Positions 1 through 7,251 of a stretch of 7,251 nt of DNA are shown piece by piece. Position 1 is the stretch's first letter, and the number at the start of each line of letters is the position of its first letter. Source of the DNA: a virus (taxonomy: Duplodnaviria; Heunggongvirae; Uroviricota; Caudoviricetes); the IMG/VR virus record IMGVR_UViG_2537562172_000004, positions 1-7,251 of that record. The stretch is one strand, 5' to 3'. A model generated the notes under the pieces. It made no database searches, had not been told where the DNA came from, and was given only the letters and a program-made list of their open reading frames with translations. The position numbers and the translations under genes are program-made.

Positions 1-129
1 CTATTTATCGGAAGGTTTATCTTGCTGCGGTTTGTTGTTGACCATATCGCACAACATAGAGAGCAGCATTAACCGTACTTTAAAGGGAGAATGACTAAAC
101 ACGCGCATACACCTCTTGAACTCATTCAT
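1..129 (-). CDS. Small hypothetical protein (42 aa), possibly a flanking host gene
   Basis: Window begins with cta (TAG on the minus strand). In-frame ATG at 127-129 is preceded on the minus strand by AGGAGG (plus 134-139) with a 4-nt spacer. Next in-frame stop upstream is at 178-180, so the ORF is at most 42 aa. Translation MNEFKRCMRVFSHSPFKVRLMLLSMLCDMVNNKPQQDKPSDK. Below the ORF-track size cutoff; no family recognised. Confidence 0.3.
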   Translation of the reverse strand: MNEFKRCMRVFSHSPFKVRLMLLSMLCDMVNNKPQQDKPSDK

Positions 130-158
130 AAGACCTCCTGACTTGCTAATCCCGTCGA

Positions 159-178
159 TCCTTGAGGGATGATTGCAT
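159..178. repeat. Left copy of imperfect direct repeat (TCCTTGAGGGATGATTGCAT); candidate att core
   Basis: Hand alignment to 6875-6895 (TCCTTGATAGGATTATTGCAT) gives 18 identical positions, 2 mismatches and one 1-nt gap. It lies about 120 bp beyond the int stop, where P2-family att sites sit. Significance not computed. Confidence 0.35.
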
Positions 179-248
179 TACATACAGATATAGCACAGGC
201 TATATTATAAAGCATCAACTATCTACGAAAAACAATAACTTACAGTGT

Positions 249-261
249 TATCAATAAGTTA
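249..261 (+). promoter_or_regulatory. IHF-like site TATCAATAAGTTA (matches WATCAANNNNTTR)
   Basis: Exact match to the IHF consensus in the AT-rich stretch between the candidate att core and the int 3' end. Single consensus matches can occur by chance. Confidence 0.3.
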
Positions 262-296
262 CGTTAGTTAATATCTGTGAGTATTCGGCAGTATTT

Positions 297-1337
297 CTAA
301 GCTGTCGCGACATTTTTGCGACATTTTAAGGGGTTAAGTCGCACGGCATCTTCAAGGTGGCTTGGGGCGAAATGGGCATAACGCATTGTCATAGTGATGT
401 CAGCGTGGCCGAGAATTTTTTGCAGAACCAGAATGTTTCCGCCGTTCATCATAAAGTGGCTGGCAAATGTATGGCGCAGTACATGGGTAAGCTGGCCGGA
501 GGGGAGTTCAATGCCTGCACGTTCCAGAGCAGAGCGGAAAGCGTTGTAGCAGGGCTTGGGGAACAGAGCGCCTTTTGTTTCAGGTAATTCGGACAGAAGT
601 TCATCATCAAGGGGAATTGTTCTGTTGCGCTTCCCTTTGGTTTTGACGAACGTGACTTTACCCCCGGCGATCTGGGAGCTTTTCAGCGTTGCCGCCTCAT
701 TCCACCTTGCGCCGGTAGCAAGGCAGATTTTGACAACTAATTCTAGGTACTTAACTTTACTTCGTTTGCATTCCAGTAAAAGCCGATCAATTTCTTCGGT
801 AGTGAGGAAAGCCATTTCGGTTTCATCAGTACGATACTGTCTGACGTTTTCTAGTGGGTTGGGTGCTGACCATTCACCAATCCGTTTCAGCTCGTTGAAC
901 ATAGCCAGGAAGTAAGCATGTTCAAGGTTCATAGTTTTCGGGGAAACCTTAGATACTCTGTTGGTACGGGCATAATGCCCATCCAGCCTTTTAGCGCGGT
1001 AGGCTGTGAACAACTGGGCATTAAATTCTGTGGCCAGCGGGAATCCCATGCATTCCGCCGCCCAGGTCATAGCATTTTTACGCTTTTCGCCATTGCTCAA
1101 AGCTACGCCGTGGCGTTCATACCACATTGTTATCAGATCTATTAAAGTTCGCTTGTCCTTCCCTTCACCCAGCCACGGAGCTGCGTCTACTTTCTGAAGC
1201 GTATGGTTTTCGAATGCCAGGGCTTCCCCTTTCGTGGCAAATTTTTTACGTATACGCTTCCCGTTCTTGCCATTACTGCGGTTGACGGTGTAGAAGTCGG
1301 CGATCCATTCGCCTGTAGGAAGTTTACGAACGCTCAT
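297..1337 (-). CDS. int: Tyrosine-type site-specific integrase, P2/186 family
   Basis: 346-aa ORF. Tyrosine-recombinase signature is visible in the translation: TGARWNE, then HVLRHTFASHF, then TMRYAHF with the catalytic Tyr. Overall layout resembles P2-family Int. Its ATG (1335-1337) lies 1 nt after the cI stop (TAA-A-ATG on the minus strand), as in the 186 cI-int operon. Confidence 0.93.
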   Translation of the reverse strand: MSVRKLPTGEWIADFYTVNRSNGKNGKRIRKKFATKGEALAFENHTLQKVDAAPWLGEGKDKRTLIDLITMWYERHGVALSNGEKRKNAMTWAAECMGFPLATEFNAQLFTAYRAKRLDGHYARTNRVSKVSPKTMNLEHAYFLAMFNELKRIGEWSAPNPLENVRQYRTDETEMAFLTTEEIDRLLLECKRSKVKYLELVVKICLATGARWNEAATLKSSQIAGGKVTFVKTKGKRNRTIPLDDELLSELPETKGALFPKPCYNAFRSALERAGIELPSGQLTHVLRHTFASHFMMNGGNILVLQKILGHADITMTMRYAHFAPSHLEDAVRLNPLKCRKNVATA

Positions 1338-1338
1338 T

Positions 1339-1920
1339 TTATTTTATCGTCAGAACAACGCGGCCTATGATTTTTATGTCGTCAATTCCGCAATCAAATG
1401 CCATACCAACACCGCTAACTCTGACTTTTCGTACCGGAATCCGTGTAAGAGTGCGGACGCTTGTTTTTCCTTCAACTTCAACCAACCAATCATCGTCATA
1501 AACTTCAGAATAAGACTGGTCAACAATGTACTGAACAAGGCCATCCAGAACACAAATCGGTTGTTGCGGTAAGGGCTTACCAGGCAGGAAGATGACTTTA
1601 TCAAGCATAAGTGTGCCAGCGTCATAGAGTTGGCCATCAACAATCTTGCTGCGCGGTATTTTGAGTATGTCTAATTCATCATCATTAAATTTACGTCCCT
1701 GTCCTGTCGCCAGCCACTCCAGATTAGCGCCTGTTTCGGCTACACATTTCACGACAATGTCTGCCGGGAAAACTCCACGCTTGTAGCGTGAAGAAAGAGA
1801 ACTGGCTGCCATGTCCAGATGTTCCGCGAGCTGTAACTTCTGCGTAAATCCGTAAGCCTCGATCACCCTGTCAAGAATCGGTGTGCTATCTACGTTTAGG
1901 TCGATTTTAAATGTGCTCAT
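1339..1920 (-). CDS. cI: CI-type immunity repressor (coliphage 186 type)
   Basis: 193-aa ORF from the ATG at 1918-1920; the track ORF extends to a GTG at 1960-1962, which would lie inside the promoter/operator region. Size matches 186 CI (192 aa). It sits immediately upstream of and coupled to int, divergent from apl-cII. N-terminal HTH-like segment FTQKLQLAEHLDMAASSLSSRYKRG. No GDSM Ser-Lys autopeptidase motif seen. Confidence 0.8.
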   Translation of the reverse strand: MSTFKIDLNVDSTPILDRVIEAYGFTQKLQLAEHLDMAASSLSSRYKRGVFPADIVVKCVAETGANLEWLATGQGRKFNDDELDILKIPRSKIVDGQLYDAGTLMLDKVIFLPGKPLPQQPICVLDGLVQYIVDQSYSEVYDDDWLVEVEGKTSVRTLTRIPVRKVRVSGVGMAFDCGIDDIKIIGRVVLTIK

Positions 1921-1934
1921 AGCGAATCCATAAG

Positions 1935-1947
1935 TCTCGATTCGAGA
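1935..1947. promoter_or_regulatory. Perfect 13-bp palindrome TCTCGA-T-TCGAGA; candidate repressor operator
   Basis: Seen directly. A degenerate second copy TCTCGA-A-ACGCGA (10 of 13) lies 29 bp to the right at 1964-1976, inside the spacer of the candidate rightward promoter. Confidence 0.45.
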
Positions 1948-1955
1948 AATTAAAA

Positions 1956-1984
1956 TTGACACTTCTCGAAACGCGAATTAATCT
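1956..1984 (+). promoter_or_regulatory. Candidate rightward early promoter (pR-like)
   Basis: Consensus -35 TTGACA at 1956-1961, then a 17-nt spacer to a weak -10 TAATCT at 1979-1984 (alternatively ATTAAT at 1977-1982). Positioned between the cI start and the apl SD. A possible convergent leftward promoter (-35 TTAACC on the minus strand at plus 2033-2038, -10 TATATA near plus 2009-2014) is much less certain. Confidence 0.4.
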
Positions 1985-2055
1985 GGCTCCATATTTCGAA
2001 TGTTGCCTTATATAACCCTGTATTGCCGTACAGGTTAACTTGTGGAGTTTGCCTC

Positions 2056-2277
2056 ATGCGTCCGAACATTACAATCATCATCCCTGAGCCATACCTGCCT
2101 TTAGACGAGTATTGCCGCCGTACTGGTACCAACAAAGAAACCGCCAGGAACCTGATCGAATACGGGAAATTACCTATTAAGCCGAAGGGTAAGCAGAAGA
2201 AAGGCTTGGTCGAAGTCAACATGGCCGCGCTCACTATTCAGGCTTTAAGCGAATGTGACATTTCGCTTAACGCGTAA
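2056..2277 (+). CDS. apl: Apl/Cox-like excisionase and switch regulator
   Basis: 73-aa ORF from ATG 2056, preceded by GGAG at 2044-2047 (8-nt spacer). The track ORF starts at an upstream TTG (2023) with no SD. First gene rightward of the switch. Segment PYLPLDEYCRRTGTNKETARNLIEYGKLP resembles the DNA-binding region of P2 Cox as I recall it. Confidence 0.7.
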   Translation: MRPNITIIIPEPYLPLDEYCRRTGTNKETARNLIEYGKLPIKPKGKQKKGLVEVNMAALTIQALSECDISLNA

Positions 2278-2307
2278 TCCATCCTACGGATTCGGGAGAG
2301 GCAAACA

Positions 2308-2811
2308 ATGTTTGATTACCAGACCTCTAAACATGCGCACTTTGATGCGGCTTGCCGAGCATTTGCAATTGAGCACAATCTTGAAGATGTGGCCGCTGCC
2401 GTTGGTATGAGGCCGCAGATCCTGCGCAACAAACTGAACCCAGCACAACCGCACCGCCTGACCTGTGATGAGCTTTTGGCTATCACGGATTACACCGAAG
2501 ATGCGCGTTTGCTTGATGGGATGTTAGGTCAGATTAACTGCCTTCCATCCGTGCCGGTGAACAATGCCACAGAAGGCAACATGCAGTTGTGCGCACTGAG
2601 TGCCACAGCCAGTGTGGGCGCGATTGCTGGGGAAGCCGTATCAACTGGCTATATGACTGCCGCCCGCCGTACTCAAATTCTGGATCGTGCCCGCGATGCA
2701 ATCCGTAGCTTATCCGTGCTGGCTTATACCGTTGAAAGCCGTATTCACTCTGCGCCTGTTCTGGCTGCGGCGGTGGAGCTGGTCACAACCAACGCCACCG
2801 GCCTGATGTGA
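2308..2811 (+). CDS. cII: CII-like HTH transcriptional activator (186 type)
   Basis: 167-aa ORF; SD GGGAGAGG 6 nt upstream of the ATG. HTH-like segment LEDVAAAVGMRPQILRNKL. Size and position (second gene of the rightward operon) match 186 CII (169 aa). Confidence 0.75.
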   Translation: MFDYQTSKHAHFDAACRAFAIEHNLEDVAAAVGMRPQILRNKLNPAQPHRLTCDELLAITDYTEDARLLDGMLGQINCLPSVPVNNATEGNMQLCALSATASVGAIAGEAVSTGYMTAARRTQILDRARDAIRSLSVLAYTVESRIHSAPVLAAAVELVTTNATGLM

Positions 2812-2820
2812 GGGAACACC

Positions 2821-2994
2821 ATGAAAGCGTTTGTCACTTACCTGAAAAAAGAATCACCAGCCATGCAGTTGCCGAGTGGTTCAACGGGCTGGATAGAACT
2901 GCCAAACGGTCAGCGCTGGAACCCTGGCCACATGTACAAATTCAATGGCCAGCAGCCGCGCCGCCCGTGGTGGCGTCGTCTGATGGGACTATAG
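2821..2994 (+). CDS. Small hypothetical early protein (57 aa)
   Basis: Not in the ORF track. ATG 2821 is preceded by GAGGGAA (2810-2816); stop TAG at 2992-2994. Translation MKAFVTYLKKESPAMQLPSGSTGWIELPNGQRWNPGHMYKFNGQQPRRPWWRRLMGL. Occupies the slot that fil/dhr-type small early genes take in 186; homology not established. Confidence 0.4.
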   Translation: MKAFVTYLKKESPAMQLPSGSTGWIELPNGQRWNPGHMYKFNGQQPRRPWWRRLMGL

Positions 2995-3002
2995 GGGGCG
3001 TT

Positions 3003-3269
3003 ATGGCGATTAGCCAGGAACAGCAAAAGCGCGGGCTGGAGCATTTAAAACAGATCCGCCGCAAATACTTCAACGAAAGCAGCGAGGCCGCTGAATGGTG
3101 GGACAACTTAACACCGGAGTGGCGCGGCGTGGTGCTTCATGCTGCTGCGGTTACTTCTGGTTCCGGGGCATTTAAAGCCCACTTAAGCAAATGTTGCTGG
3201 CGTGAGATTTATGAACGCCTGGGCTATCGGGACATGATTCAACTGCGCCAACGCAGAAACGACCGTTAA
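3003..3269 (+). CDS. Small hypothetical early protein (88 aa)
   Basis: ATG 3003 is preceded by AGGGGG (2993-2998). It is the C-terminal part of track ORF 2808-3269, whose GTG start overlaps the cII stop; I prefer the internal ATG with its SD. Translation begins MAISQEQQKRGLEHLKQIRRKYFNESSEAAEWWDNL. Confidence 0.5.
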   Translation: MAISQEQQKRGLEHLKQIRRKYFNESSEAAEWWDNLTPEWRGVVLHAAAVTSGSGAFKAHLSKCCWREIYERLGYRDMIQLRQRRNDR

Positions 3270-3305
3270 GAATATTGCATTTAACTACATAGTGAGACTC
3301 GCATA

Positions 3306-3893
3306 ATGACTTTTAAAATGAGTGAAACCGATCAAACAGTTACTGTTTATAACCTGCGTTCCGACACGAATGAATTTATTGGTTCAGGTGATGCTTTTAT
3401 TCCTGCGCATACTGGACTGCCAGCCAACTGCACAACAATAAAACCACCGGTAATCAAAGTGGGGTTTGTGGCAATTTTTGATTCAGAGAAGCAAAGATGG
3501 ATTTCCCGTGAGGATCATCGTGGTGAGGTGGTGTTTGATACAGAAAACGGTAATGAACTGGTGATCACCGAGCCAGGTGTTTACCCGGAAGGGACAACCA
3601 CGTTAGCACCGGCTAATGCCTGGCAAAAATGGAATGGTAAGGCGTGGGTGGATGATGCGGAGGCCATGCGAATTGTATTAGTCAGCGAGGCAGACGCCGA
3701 AAAGAAAAGCCTGCTTAAACAGGCCAATGACGCCATTGCCACATTGCAGGATGCCGTTGATTTAGACATGGCAACCGAAGAAGAAGCACTGCTGCTTACC
3801 GCATGGAAAAAATACCGCGTTTTACTGAATCGTATTCAACCGGAAGATGCGCCGGAAATTGTGTGGCCGGAGGTGCCTGGAAATGTGGCGTGA
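3306..3893 (+). CDS. tfa: Tail fibre assembly protein (lambda Tfa / P2 gpG family)
   Basis: 195-aa ORF. The N-terminus MTFKMSETDQTVTVYNLRSDTNEFIGSGDAFIPAHTGLPAN and the C-terminal block LLTAWKKYRVLLNRIQPEDAPEIVWPEVP match the conserved ends of lambda Tfa-family proteins as I recall them. No tail fibre gene precedes it. Confidence 0.85.
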   Translation: MTFKMSETDQTVTVYNLRSDTNEFIGSGDAFIPAHTGLPANCTTIKPPVIKVGFVAIFDSEKQRWISREDHRGEVVFDTENGNELVITEPGVYPEGTTTLAPANAWQKWNGKAWVDDAEAMRIVLVSEADAEKKSLLKQANDAIATLQDAVDLDMATEEEALLLTAWKKYRVLLNRIQPEDAPEIVWPEVPGNVA

Positions 3894-4608
3894 AGCACGT
3901 CTGGCCTTTACGGATTCTGTTGCTGCTCTGAACTGTTCGATCGTCCCTGCGCATCCGTGGATTTATGGGCTGGGACAGCAGACAGCGAATGGGGCATATC
4001 TCAGTCCGGTTAATGCCGTTCGCTATCTTGCTGAACGCCTGGCCGGAACTGGAGGGAATGCGGACGTGGTGATTATGATGGTCACCGGACAGACGCAGGA
4101 AAACTTTATGGTCAGCCTGAATAACCTGGTCGGGATATTCCCCGCCCCGGCATTCACGCAGGTCAAACGGCTGGCGCAATCTGCCGCAGCTCTGGCTATT
4201 GAAAAGATGCAGATCCCTGCGAAATCCGGCGCTGCGTTACCTGCGTCCATTCCGCTGTCTGTACCAACCAGCAGGGTTGCTTTATCTGCTGCGGCAATCA
4301 GCCAGGCACAAAAGGCGGCGGGTGCCGGGTTTGATATCGAAGGGCTGAAAAAACAGCTGGGCGAGTTCACGCAGCTGCGTGACCAGCTTATCAGTGACGT
4401 GGTCAGCGGCCTGAATGATTTACAGGGAAAAAGTGCCAGAGCGTGGGTTTTTACTGCCAGCGGAGACACCGGCACCACGTTACTGGAACTGATGAAGGAC
4501 ATTCCGCAGCAGTCTGCCGTTTACACCGCAGCCATGATGCTGGTTGGTGATAATCTTGATGGAATAAAGGGAATGATTCATGACTTCGATCCCGACACTG
4601 GCGCTTAA
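3883..4608 (+). CDS. Uncharacterised protein A (241 aa), first of a coupled three-gene module
   Basis: ATG 3883 with GGAGGTG at 3869-3875; overlaps the tfa stop by 11 nt. The track start at ATG 3847 has its only purine-rich stretch (GGAAG, 3842-3846) directly abutting the ATG. Globular-looking N-terminal half, Ala-rich C-terminal half (SAAALAIEKMQ, ALSAAAISQAQKAAGAG). No Walker or nuclease motif seen. Confidence 0.7.
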   Translation: MWREARLAFTDSVAALNCSIVPAHPWIYGLGQQTANGAYLSPVNAVRYLAERLAGTGGNADVVIMMVTGQTQENFMVSLNNLVGIFPAPAFTQVKRLAQSAAALAIEKMQIPAKSGAALPASIPLSVPTSRVALSAAAISQAQKAAGAGFDIEGLKKQLGEFTQLRDQLISDVVSGLNDLQGKSARAWVFTASGDTGTTLLELMKDIPQQSAVYTAAMMLVGDNLDGIKGMIHDFDPDTGA

Positions 4609-5125
4609 TGGCGAGGCCATCCAGCTGAAAAACATGCGGGTGACCGTTTCACAGCAGTTTCAGGATAAAGATCAGTCCGGCCAGACCAGCGCCACAACAA
4701 AATCAGAGCAGGGAGCAAAGGGAAAGGAACTGCGGATCAGCGGTGAAATACCTTTTAAACAGCCTGAAATACTGAAGCGTATTTTTGAGCTGGCCAGTGC
4801 TACCGATGCCAGTGGTAATCGTCAGAAGTACCGCGTGGCGCATGAAGTTGCCCGTGCAGTTAATTTTCGTGAAGCAACGTTCAGCGGAATGCTGGATGCG
4901 CCCCAGCAGGACGGGAAAATGTCCTGGCTGGTGACATTCACACTGGCGGAACATATCAGCGTGCAGGAAAAGCGAGAGGCCAGGGCAACAGGTAAGACGA
5001 CCGCAAAAAAACAGACTGCCGGTAGTGCGGGACAGTCCGGTGGCCAGTCTGCCGGAGAGGATGAAGAAAAACTGACGTGGTTTGAACGCAAGGTGCTGAA
5101 GCCCGTCAATGATGCTTTGGGTTAA
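4580..5125 (+). CDS. Uncharacterised protein B (181 aa), low-complexity Gln/Ser/Gly/Thr/Lys-rich segments
   Basis: ATG 4580 with GGGA at 4569-4572; overlaps the end of A by 29 nt in another frame. Two low-complexity stretches (QDKDQSGQTSATTKSEQGAKGKE; ARATGKTTAKKQTAGSAGQSGGQSAGEDEEK) flank a more ordinary core. Confidence 0.7.
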   Translation: MTSIPTLALNGEAIQLKNMRVTVSQQFQDKDQSGQTSATTKSEQGAKGKELRISGEIPFKQPEILKRIFELASATDASGNRQKYRVAHEVARAVNFREATFSGMLDAPQQDGKMSWLVTFTLAEHISVQEKREARATGKTTAKKQTAGSAGQSGGQSAGEDEEKLTWFERKVLKPVNDALG

Positions 5126-5127
5126 TA

Positions 5128-6828
5128 ATGAAACCAGTAAAACGTCTTTACCTTTCAACGGATGAAATTCACCTGGTGGATGCCAGCCTGGTACTGGAGC
5201 TGAACAGCTGCGGTCGGGGCTTCATCACCGCAGAGACAACAACCGATTACACCGGAAAACTGGTGCGGCTGGATGTGGGGTATACCGATCTGCTTTTGCG
5301 CTGGTTTACGGGGTACGTGGAGCGATCGCAGCCCGCAGAAAACGGTTTTCAGCGTCTGTTCATTCGTGAACTGGTAGGTGTGTTTGAAAGGATGTGGCCA
5401 TGTTCGTTTCAGCACCCGACTTTGCGTGAAATTGCGGGCTGGCTGGAAGAAAACAGCGGGATCACGGTCAGTGTGCCTGATGCACAGTACAGCGATACCC
5501 CTATCCCACATTTTACTCATAACGGTACCGGCTATCAGTTGCTGAACAATCTGGGCAGGGCGTTCAGTATCCAGGATTACATCTGGTACCAGTTGCCTGA
5601 TGGTTCGCTTTACGTCGGCGGTGCAGAAAAGTCATTGTTTGCCGGTCGTCCCGTAGAAATCCCGTCAGAGTTCAGCCAGGGGGCTGCTGGTGGTAACTCT
5701 GTGACATTACCAGTGATCCAGACTATGCGGCCAGGGGTGGAGATGAACGGTGAACGCGTGACTAAAGTTCACCTGACTAATGACACGATGGCGATCACAT
5801 GGACGCCGAGAAACCGCGCAACGGGTAAACCTTTGCAGAAAACACCGGCGCAACGGCAGATTGAAAGCCATTACCCGGAACTGGCATCCGGGCTTCATTT
5901 GCCAAAGATGGCCAGAGTCGTGGCGCATTCAGAGCCGGTAAAAAGCGGTAACTTTGCCGATCCCTTCCGTCCACGTTACGCCGTGGACGTGCAGCTGCTT
6001 GACGCAGACGGAAATCCGGACAATCAGACACCTGTTTATTCAGCGGTGCCGCTGCCGGTACCAATGGCCGGGAATGATTCGGGTATGTTTCAGTTTCCGC
6101 CAGAAGGGACGCTGGTTGAGGTTGCATTCACGGGAGGCAGACCGGATAAACCCTTTATCAGGCAGACCCTGCCGGATGGTACCAGCCTGCCGGACGTTAA
6201 ACCCGGTGAGCAATTGCAGCAGCAGCGGGAAGAAGTATGCCAGAGAGTGACGCAGGCTGGAGACTGGGTAAGGCAGACCGATCAGACCATCAGAGAAACA
6301 TCAATGGTGCGAACCGTAAAAGCCGATACAGAACAGCGCGAGCTGGTCAGCCGTGAAACCACGGTGAAAGCCACGGATAAAACCACGGTACTGGGAACCG
6401 CCACACTGCTGGCCGGAGCCATCCAGCATGTAAGCGCCGGTGATTATAGCCAGGCGGTGAAAGGTAACAGGCTGGCCAGCATTGAAGGGAATGACGAAAC
6501 TGAGATAACCGGGAAACAGTCCACTAAGGTGGCGGGAGCCGTAGATGTGGATGTGGGGGGAACCCTGACTGAAAAGATTGCTGCATTACGCAAATCGGTG
6601 GCATCGGGCGGTCAGCAGATTATGGGGCCAACCGTCCATATCGGCAGTGAAAGTGTAAACACGCTGACCATGATGTTGGACACCATTGATTTACTGGCAG
6701 AGCTGGCGCAGCAATGTGCGAGTCATTCGCACCCCAGTGTTGGTACGCCAACCAATGCCGGAGCGTTTACCCGGACGGCGACAAAGGCCGGACAGACCCG
6801 GAGCAAGTACCAGAACATCATTGCCTGA
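5128..6828 (+). CDS. Uncharacterised protein C (566 aa), bipartite with Thr/Gly/Ala/Val-rich C-terminal part
   Basis: ATG 5128 lies 2 nt after the B stop. Long uninterrupted ORF. Ordinary-looking N-terminal ~330 aa; C-terminal part rich in T/G/A/V with an HSH tripeptide near the end (QQCASHSHPSVGTPTNAGAF). No P-loop seen. Confidence 0.8.
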   Translation: MKPVKRLYLSTDEIHLVDASLVLELNSCGRGFITAETTTDYTGKLVRLDVGYTDLLLRWFTGYVERSQPAENGFQRLFIRELVGVFERMWPCSFQHPTLREIAGWLEENSGITVSVPDAQYSDTPIPHFTHNGTGYQLLNNLGRAFSIQDYIWYQLPDGSLYVGGAEKSLFAGRPVEIPSEFSQGAAGGNSVTLPVIQTMRPGVEMNGERVTKVHLTNDTMAITWTPRNRATGKPLQKTPAQRQIESHYPELASGLHLPKMARVVAHSEPVKSGNFADPFRPRYAVDVQLLDADGNPDNQTPVYSAVPLPVPMAGNDSGMFQFPPEGTLVEVAFTGGRPDKPFIRQTLPDGTSLPDVKPGEQLQQQREEVCQRVTQAGDWVRQTDQTIRETSMVRTVKADTEQRELVSRETTVKATDKTTVLGTATLLAGAIQHVSAGDYSQAVKGNRLASIEGNDETEITGKQSTKVAGAVDVDVGGTLTEKIAALRKSVASGGQQIMGPTVHIGSESVNTLTMMLDTIDLLAELAQQCASHSHPSVGTPTNAGAFTRTATKAGQTRSKYQNIIA

Positions 6829-6840
6829 CCATTCCAGACA

Positions 6841-6868
6841 GCCCGCAAAACGCGGGTTTTGTCGTTTT
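6841..6868 (+). terminator. Rho-independent terminator of the rightward operon
   Basis: Stem CCCGC (6842-6846) pairs with GCGGG (6852-6856) around loop AAAAC, followed by TTTTGTCGTTTT. Located 13 nt after the stop of protein C. Confidence 0.75.
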
Positions 6869-6874
6869 CTCAGT

Positions 6875-6895
6875 TCCTTGATAGGATTATTGCAT
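6875..6895. repeat. Right copy of imperfect direct repeat (TCCTTGATAGGATTATTGCAT); candidate att core
   Basis: Partner of 159-178 (18 identities, 2 mismatches, 1 gap by hand). Lies between the operon terminator and the AT-richer downstream gene. Confidence 0.35.
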
Positions 6896-6918
6896 ACTCA
6901 AATGATAGGAATAGGGAT

Positions 6919-7251
6919 ATGAAAAATTTCATTATATTAGCTGTAGGGGCAGCAGTTTCATTTAATGTGTTTGCGGCTGAGGTTGTTTATGTGCCAACAG
7001 ATACGAAGGCTAGTTACACGATTTTAGATAAGACTCGCGACGGCAGCATGGCTACTATAACAACTGAAAGAAAGGGGCCGTCTGGAACATCATATTCAAA
7101 GCGGCTGTACGACTGTACTGCCGGGACAGTTAAATATCTTGGAGACGGTGAGACCATCGAGCAGATGAATAACTCAGCACCAGATCCAAATATGGCCCCT
7201 ATAGTTGACCGCTCAATTGCATACTACATTGGACAAAAAGCCTGCCAGTAA
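6919..7251 (+). CDS. Small secreted (signal-peptide) protein, 110 aa, function unknown
   Basis: ATG 6919 with AGGA at 6907-6910. N-terminus MKNFIILAVGAAVSFNVFA-AEVV has a Lys at position 2, a hydrophobic core and a likely VFA-A cleavage site. Mature part has two Cys (LYDCTAG, QKACQ). Codons look more A/T-rich than the upstream operon by eye. The track's longer form from 6859 would start inside the terminator T-tract. Window ends exactly at its stop. Confidence 0.65.
   Translation: MKNFIILAVGAAVSFNVFAAEVVYVPTDTKASYTILDKTRDGSMATITTERKGPSGTSYSKRLYDCTAGTVKYLGDGETIEQMNNSAPDPNMAPIVDRSIAYYIGQKACQ

Follow-up and report, generated by a model that had tools for sequence, protein, structure and literature searches.

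Morons, in the concept that goes back to Hendrix and Juhala, are extra genes with transcription signals of their own and a deviant base composition, inserted between conserved phage genes. Two phage proteins of superinfection exclusion are small and exported: Sim of phage P1, a processed periplasmic protein, and Spackle of T4, a periplasmic inhibitor of the gp5 tail lysozyme. In phage lambda, rexAB lies in the immunity region and is co-transcribed with cI. The gene considered here stands at the right end of a stretch of 7,251 nucleotides (the window; IMG/VR virus record IMGVR_UViG_2537562172_000004, positions 1 to 7,251), which carries what is left of a P2/HP1-like prophage integrated in Escherichia coli between mntS and mntR. 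I propose that this small gene is probably a moron, a self-contained accessory cassette within the variable cargo at the right end of that prophage.

Two experimentally studied proteins bear on its product through their folds. Protein E of Haemophilus influenzae has a six-stranded antiparallel sheet, and its C-terminal helix is linked to the end of beta4 by a disulfide (Cys99-Cys148) that was shown experimentally (PMC6652776). PseM (PA0989) of Pseudomonas aeruginosa, described as an "endolytic muramidase", is exported by Sec to the periplasm and has a beta-sheet core with an experimentally seen strand-to-helix disulfide, Cys87-Cys134 (PMC12494544). I take PseM to be the protein deposited as TdeM (PDB 9m3l). 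Four of its residues, Tyr36, Arg90, Glu120 and Arg128, have been implicated in activity.

The cassette and its gene appear in the window as follows (in cleavage sites, here and below, a slash marks the cut):

6840-6868, plus strand: hairpin resembling an intrinsic terminator, with a T tail, at the end of the tail-gene operon and just 5' of the cassette
6861-7251, plus strand: in-window part of the 569-bp cassette, which ends at the equivalent of window 7429 and has a terminator of its own
6907-6917, plus strand: Shine-Dalgarno region, AGGA at 6907-6910 and AGGGA at 6913-6917, read from the sequence
6919-7251, plus strand: coding sequence of a 110-aa protein, predicted to be exported, from ATG at 6919 to TAA at 7249-7251 (stop included), identical to WP_000787654.1
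6919-6978, plus strand: predicted signal peptide, residues 1-19 or 1-20, with n-region MK, a hydrophobic h-region and a cut at VFA/A or FAA/E
7114-7116, plus strand: codon of Cys66, at the end of the fourth beta-strand of the model, aligned with Cys99 of Protein E by hhalign
7243-7245, plus strand: codon of Cys109, at the end of the C-terminal helix of the model, predicted disulfide partner of Cys66

The extent of the cassette comes from related prophages. L001, the full-length prophage of E. coli strain 1919D3, matches window 3249-7251 at 100% and supplies coordinates past the window's end. A sister prophage at the same attachment (att) site, L003, is collinear with it as far as window 6860, and collinearity resumes at L001 14601; between these points lie 569 bp in L001 and 115 bp in L003. 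The edges of the indel are clean, and the 569-bp segment is made up of a leader, the open reading frame (ORF) and a terminator. The small gene is found in 13 of 5,426 complete E. coli genomes, its neighbor, a tail gene for 566 aa, in 50. Put otherwise, 13 of the 50 related E. coli prophages carry it and no empty site does, and in all 12 of the carriers that were examined for context it is contiguous with prophage tail genes. Among otherwise collinear prophages the gene is present in some and absent from others, as a moron is.

Terminators stand on both sides of it. The upstream hairpin covers window 6840-6858 (L001 14011-14029, an offset of 7171), and its T-rich tail runs to about 6868. A second terminator-like hairpin lies 41 bp past the stop codon, outside the window (L001 14463-14481, the equivalent of window 7292-7310). 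The small gene is bracketed by the two, and one of them is its own. Its GC content is 43.8% (40% at third codon positions) against 54.6% (58%) for the adjoining 566-aa gene, 11 points lower and a gap of about 4 binomial standard deviations across 333 bp; the composition is foreign. In optional presence, clean indel, lower GC content, flanking terminators and a place at the end of the prophage where cargo is swapped, the E. coli cassette is like the morons of temperate phages. It differs from the classic ones in that its promoter is only a candidate and its expression in the lysogen is inferred from homologues. The Shine-Dalgarno sequence is kept in the Salmonella and Citrobacter-type copies. 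A first-pass annotation, made from the letters alone, had put a gene at 6869-7251, with its own Shine-Dalgarno sequence, following a terminator and richer in AT than the operon upstream. These points hold and the ORF is real; only the left coordinate has to be moved, 6869 being the start of the intergenic leader and 6919 the ATG.

Some observations on the leader and the reading frame may be set down here. The leader has two copies of the motif GATAGGA(T/A)T (window 6880-6888 and 6904-6912). Aligned upstream of the gene, the Salmonella and Citrobacter-type leaders have an extra near-duplicate of 14 nt (GTTAGGATTGTTGC / GATAGGATTATTGC) that the window does not have. The repeat and its near-duplicate may be a regulatory site or a mere product of slippage. 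An alternative TTG start at 6859 was ruled out, as all homologues begin at the MK of the signal peptide, and an ORF on the opposite strand (7014-7157) was dropped for want of support. Scans of the window and the downstream region against Rfam gave no match.

The ORF has also been held to its sequence. One sister prophage has tail genes on the flank that are only 92.5% identical, yet its copy of the protein is identical, the gene showing 5 synonymous changes and no non-synonymous ones. Against the Salmonella copy the ratio of non-synonymous to synonymous substitution rates (dN/dS) is 0.15. By these comparisons the gene is genuine, and purifying selection acts on it. Exactly this protein turns up in 2,528 indexed blocks of the assembly collection.

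The position of the gene relative to the ends of the element is settled by the att sites. The landmarks to its left are these:

1-129, minus strand: host gene mntS, the left chromosomal flank (PF26599 MntS), 99.5% identical to K-12
199-209, no strand assigned: attL core GCTATATTATA, with a matching attR copy about 1.4 kb past the window's right end
297-1337, minus strand: phage integrase (Pfam Phage_integrase), the left end of the element
5128-6828, plus strand: last conserved gene of the tail/baseplate region, 566 aa, the upstream neighbor of the cassette noted above

The empty site of E. coli K-12, between mntS and mntR, aligns to window 1-213 and then again only from L001 15828. About 15 bp are covered by both alignments, whose exact common core is GCTATATTATA (window 199-209; L001 15828-15838); in L001 coordinates this places attR 1,406 bp past the end of the window. 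DNA past that end is 99.9-100% identical between prophage remnants and the full prophage, so the reconstruction of the right end holds for the window's own genome as well. Rightward from the tail genes come a terminator, the small gene with its own terminator behind it, a stretch of about 550 bp, and a hexapeptide acetyltransferase gene read from the opposite strand (39% GC); attR and mntR follow. Since attR lies 1.4 kb beyond the window, the small gene is inside the att-bounded prophage and is cargo of it. The 185-bp intergenic region between mntS and mntR in K-12 holds no copy. The first-pass annotation had the gene just outside the right boundary of the element, which it would mark; that placement fails, for the right edge of the window is not the edge of the element, and the cargo region goes on to attR beside mntR. 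The last base of the window, 7251, is the last base of the stop codon. Several IMG/VR proviral contigs (L030, L032-L034) end at exactly the same stop codon, which suggests that the window's edge is an artefact of provirus boundary calling, cut at the end of a gene.

The att core itself lies in an AT-rich, partly palindromic stretch (ATAGC...GCTAT) within the divergent promoter region of mntS and mntR (window 180-215; L002 3050-3110). Integration parts mntS from mntR by the whole length of the prophage and might disturb their regulation.

What follows the small gene differs from carrier to carrier: an acetyltransferase in some; a DprA-like protein with a 437-aa and a DUF6680 protein in others (L020, L024); and, in Salmonella (L011), an ATPase of the AAA_15/AAA_21 families. 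The Salmonella carriers with the ATPase are integrated at dsbB or raiA, and the same small gene is found too in prophages at dsbB, at raiA and near cobS. An E. coli relative integrated at raiA has a different acyltransferase and no small gene. The right end of the prophage is a hotspot of swappable cargo, some of which may be defense systems. Beside the small gene, the second cargo gene of L001 (15044-15757, minus strand, some 620 bp past the window's end) encodes a hexapeptide-repeat "serine acetyltransferase" and has 39% GC; the sister prophage L004 has an unrelated acyltransferase in the right-end cargo position.

The window is itself a remnant left by deletion. It retains an early region, made up of int, cI, cII, fil and a truncated ORF of 142 aa, and this region is joined directly to the last 57 bp of the tail-fiber gene, with the junction at window 3249-3250, where there is a CA microhomology. 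Its exact arrangement is found in no complete E. coli genome. At least five differently and independently deleted remnants (the window, L022, L023, L026 and L029) keep the small gene intact; L022, L023, L026 and L029 all keep the acetyltransferase as well. In two of these remnants the deletion reaches to within 126 and 151 bp of the small gene's ATG, on its upstream side. A deletion junction common to the window and L022 was ruled out, the shared point being only the start of tail-fiber homology.

Turning to the protein, the N-terminus, MKNFIILAVGAAVSFNVFA/A/E, shows by inspection and in the alignment of homologues the n-h-c layout of a Sec signal for signal peptidase I and has no lipobox cysteine. 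The equivalent cleavage sites in the homologue alignment are ASA/T and LAA/E. Judged from its sequence, the small protein would be secreted by the Sec/signal peptidase I route, with a predicted mature form of 90-91 aa, 9.9 kDa and isoelectric point 5.2. The 110 aa include exactly two cysteines, C66 and C109. Both are invariant in 35 homologues; across 74 of greater diversity they are either invariant too or conserved in at least 90%. Among polar residues, D28, R51, R62, K72, Y73 and S99 are invariant. Every member of the family inspected has a signal peptide, a lipobox or a transmembrane (TM) anchor. A lipobox is absent from the window protein and its enterobacterial homologues; a few distant members have a lipobox or TM anchor in place of the signal. 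The first-pass description of a signal-peptide protein with two cysteines and a mature form of about 91 residues is borne out.

An AlphaFold2 model, built on the family alignment, has a mean predicted local distance difference test score (pLDDT) of 89.5, with values of at least 94 over the mature part and of 52-57 for residues 1-20. The modelled chain forms five antiparallel strands and two helices, one short and one C-terminal; C66 comes after the fourth strand and C109 ends the last helix. As in Protein E, then, the model combines an antiparallel sheet with a C-terminal helix that would be disulfide-linked to the end of beta4. When the PDB was searched with Foldseek, the top six matches were all Protein E entries, at probabilities of 0.84-0.99, and the best match among viral models was a phage protein annotated "Surface-adhesin protein E". 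The fold of the model also matches the core of P. aeruginosa PseM/TdeM. The model points to a fold and a disulfide staple common to the small protein, Protein E and PseM/TdeM, and a distant homology among them is plausible.

Comparison of sequences brings the small protein near Protein E without placing it there. The family of Protein E, Adhesin_E (PF16747), is matched by 16 of 74 relatives, only below the gathering threshold (best E 0.0019), and each other Pfam family touched was touched by a single relative. Aligned by hhalign with Protein E orthologues, whose profile is narrow and confined to Pasteurellaceae, the family gives a probability of 11% with the alignment of 35 homologues and 16.7% with that of 74 sequences (E 0.0015 over 66 columns, both cysteines in register). 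Alignment of the family to a single Protein E sequence gives nothing. Membership in the Adhesin_E/Protein E family is not established by sequence.

There are differences from both fold relatives. H. influenzae Protein E (PDB 3zh5, 6gus) is a lipoprotein of about 144 mature residues, whereas the window protein has 91 and no lipobox and does not have the makings of a surface-exposed lipoprotein. Nothing in Protein E corresponds to the conserved motifs of the window family, GPSGTSYSKR and VKYLG, and this family is carried by phages and common outside host-associated bacteria. PseM/TdeM has 159 residues. The window protein, with 91 in its mature form, is about 70 shorter and ends at Cys109-Gln110, right after the disulfide helix, so that it has none of the alpha5 and alpha6 helices from which PseM forms its homodimer and its proposed substrate crevice. 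It also has no adjoining Nudix "immunity" gene, nor any detectable sequence similarity to PseM/TdeM.

In databases of families the small protein is nearly a stranger. Scans against Pfam and NCBIfam gave nothing usable, with no match to Adhesin_E at E<=1; a weak match to Phage_portal_2 (E 0.06) was set aside as noise. It does match PHROG 13843 over its full length (E 1.9e-47), a group whose function label is "unknown". A word-indexed search found 80 clusters of homologues, in Salmonella, Citrobacter, Yokenella, Klebsiella, Pseudomonas, Thiobacillus and metagenomes, all annotated as hypothetical. An exhaustive profile search raised the number to 641 clusters at 50% identity, with no Pfam family. 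They have a highly conserved core: VPxDxkAxYxiL, TKRxGPSGTSYSKRLYDC, TVKYLG, PDxxMxPIV and SIAyYVGxxAC. Longer members have the domain behind a lipobox, a TM/coiled-coil anchor, a DUF4124, a PPIase domain or an SH3_3 domain. Because these fusions and anchors are extracytoplasmic, the domain would always act outside the cytoplasm; as a clue to function the fused domains are too heterogeneous to say more than that. Searches of PDB chains by sequence and by profile turned up no real match. I take a profile match to PDB 6xi1 ("Flagellin hook IN motif family") to be a coincidence of motif: a repeat there (YNVDNSKVQYLGEGETKVE) is matched four times in the same way over 19 residues, never significantly in any one match; the segment that resembles this repeat is residues 64-82 (window 7108-7164), with the motif YDCxxxTVKYLGDGET. 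Matches to antibodies were spurious.

The homologues sit in diverse phages. In Klebsiella prophages and in the siphovirus-type phages Kp4856-1 and Kp4862-1, the gene comes just before that of the tape measure. In the P1-like phage D6 it stands between ddrB and the portal gene. It has mobile-element genes for neighbors in a Pseudomonas genome and in an environmental integrative element. The 80 IMG/VR loci show about 14 flanking contexts, and no conserved partner gene was found among the neighbors in the Klebsiella, D6, Pseudomonas, Salmonella and environmental loci. In two siphovirus-type contexts (L093 4330-5111; L094 4324-4953) the family gene is followed by other small ORFs for exported proteins or lipoproteins that have no Pfam family, which suggests clusters of envelope-targeted morons.

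One context says something about expression. At seven Pseudomonas-type loci the homologue lies 81-97 bp downstream of a gene for a CI repressor (Pfam HTH and Peptidase_S24), on the same strand, with a Cro-like gene diverging. The gap between cI and the homologue holds no terminator and no promoter. The repressors of these loci are 53-66% identical, and that of L096 is unrelated; the family gene is 62-98% identical. These homologues occupy the same slot as lambda rexAB, directly downstream of cI, although the proteins are unrelated. Because the homologues stand directly behind cI with no terminator between, in the rexAB position, their context argues, by analogy, that the family is made in lysogens. 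The argument is drawn from homologues and not from the E. coli copy, which differs from rexAB in lying at the far right end of its prophage.

How might the protein work? In the lysogen, Sec would export the 110-aa precursor, and signal peptidase I would cleave it behind Ala19 or Ala20. The mature protein of 10 kDa would fold into a five-stranded antiparallel sheet, and a disulfide made by DsbA in the periplasm, Cys66-Cys109, would pin its C-terminal helix to the end of strand 4. The product would be a compact, soluble periplasmic domain. The role that I favor over any other, though only tentatively, is that of a binding module that protects the envelope of the lysogen, either by exclusion at the step where an incoming phage meets the periplasm and peptidoglycan or by neutralizing an enzyme directed at the wall. 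What leads to this suggestion is the lysogen-type placement, the solo gene, the spread over phage lineages and the retention in decaying prophages, together with the fact that the hotspot elsewhere carries defense-like ATPases and surface-modifying acyltransferases. Sim of P1 and Spackle of T4 are likewise small, Sec-exported, soluble periplasmic products of phage accessory genes, properties that on the side of the window protein are predicted; no relationship to them in sequence or fold was found. Of the first-pass suggestion that the gene could be a moron for superinfection exclusion or envelope modification, the moron part agrees with the 569-bp insertion relative to a sister prophage, the deviant composition, the flanking terminators and the homologues in unrelated phages; the specific role stays plausible, by analogy.

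The gene could be read in other ways. That it is an ordinary host envelope gene beside the insertion site and outside the mobile element, as the first-pass annotation had also allowed, is what one might think from a window that ends at the gene, from the terminator of the last conserved phage operon in front of it, and from the divergence of related prophages at window 6828-6860. The test that annotation had named for itself, the same locus in strains that lack the element, refutes it: the mntS-mntR site of K-12 lacks the gene, no empty site has it and attR comes 1.4 kb further on. A host gene would hardly be confined to 13 of 5,426 genomes, contiguous with phage tail genes in the 12 examined, and be met again in prophages at dsbB, at raiA and near cobS; this reading has next to no chance of being right. 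If the gene does belong to the phage, it might serve the lytic cycle, in tail assembly, in the timing of lysis or as a part of the virion, instead of lysogenic conversion. It is on the same strand as the tail genes and directly after them, in many siphovirus-type prophages it is inside the tail module before the tape-measure gene, and in D6 it precedes the portal gene. Yet it is missing from 37 of 50 sister prophages and separated from the tail operon by a terminator, and in other phages it sits in the immunity region behind cI. A signal peptide is unusual for virion or assembly proteins, and remnants with no structural genes at all keep the small gene intact. I regard a lytic function as quite improbable.

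The remaining alternatives accept export and turn on what the protein does outside the cytoplasm. An enzyme or toxin directed at peptidoglycan, in the manner of PseM/TdeM, could serve a lysogen against competitors or a phage at the wall. It is hard to see this, and I think it most unlikely, of a protein with 91 mature residues in place of 159, no alpha5 and alpha6 helices for dimer and proposed crevice, no similarity in sequence to any PDB chain and, in any context, no conserved immunity-like partner adjoining it. A toxic periplasmic enzyme without its immunity would not stay under purifying selection behind cI, and the catalytic mechanism of PseM itself is unresolved. An adhesin like Protein E, binding host matrix or complement regulators and so acting as a virulence moron, would account for the match in fold and disulfide to the H. 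influenzae protein, for the sub-threshold Adhesin_E matches in 16 of 74 relatives and for phage-borne proteins annotated "Surface-adhesin protein E". But the E. coli protein, with a signal for signal peptidase I and no lipobox, has no evident route to the cell surface, and its family is common in environmental bacteria and metagenomes (Thiobacillus, Pseudomonas). The profile-profile probability, moreover, is only 11-17%, and GPSGTSYSKR and VKYLG are absent from Protein E; there is small likelihood of such a function, for which the ligands would be vitronectin, laminin or plasminogen. Finally, the protein might be an orphan immunity protein spread by phages, a periplasmic inhibitor of a lysozyme or of a wall-degrading effector delivered by contact-dependent or type VI secretion systems. 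That would suit a small, exported, solo gene product on mobile elements, predicted to be disulfide-bonded and in some members anchored by lipid or a TM segment, and a cargo hotspot shared with defense-like genes; as an account in its own right I hold it to be rather unlikely.

Several considerations weigh against the reading I prefer, a moron that shields the envelope of the lysogen. Upstream of the gene there is just one sigma-70-like site (9/12, window 6878-6906), of a quality found at chance frequency (2 found, 1.8 expected), and it would put the Shine-Dalgarno sequence upstream of the start of transcription. In alignment the upstream region is no more conserved than the coding part. As a promoter of the gene's own, that site is at most a candidate. 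The disulfide and the periplasmic location are predictions. Remnants might keep the gene simply because internal deletions leave the two ends of the element in place. The relatives in fold act otherwise, one as an adhesin and one as a claimed muramidase toxin, so the fold does not specify a function in exclusion. The PADLOC defense models yielded no family at E<=1 for the small protein, and no characterization of the family was found in the literature, where its accession, phage-borne Protein E and phage D6 were looked for.

Apart from the cassette, three conserved genes that follow the tail-fiber assembly gene (window 3847-6828) are mostly annotated as hypothetical. Their products have 241, 181 and 566 aa; the second contains Pfam HP1_ORF34, the third has only a faint match to Gp5_C, and all three may be baseplate or spike components of a P2/HP1-like tail.

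As a feature of a P2/HP1-like prophage, a moron at one end is nothing out of the ordinary. Of moderate interest is its protein family, which is linked by structure to Protein E and PseM/TdeM. Morons are a route by which temperate phages alter the phenotype of their hosts, and here a sizeable family, uncharacterized, recurs in prophages of E. coli, Salmonella, Klebsiella and the Pseudomonas type and is kept by prophages in decay. It is conceivable, though I would not lean on it even as far as on the protective role itself, that this periplasmic family with the Protein E/PseM fold, spread by phages and lodged in slots expressed in the lysogen, is a new factor of envelope-level exclusion or of immunity to muramidases, and that it ties both the adhesin Protein E and the toxin PseM to an ancestral module for binding peptidoglycan or the envelope. 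If exclusion or protection of the envelope is indeed what the protein does, it would add a compact mechanism, periplasmic and encoded by a single gene, to those of temperate phages, and would give a functional handle on the fold of Protein E and PseM.

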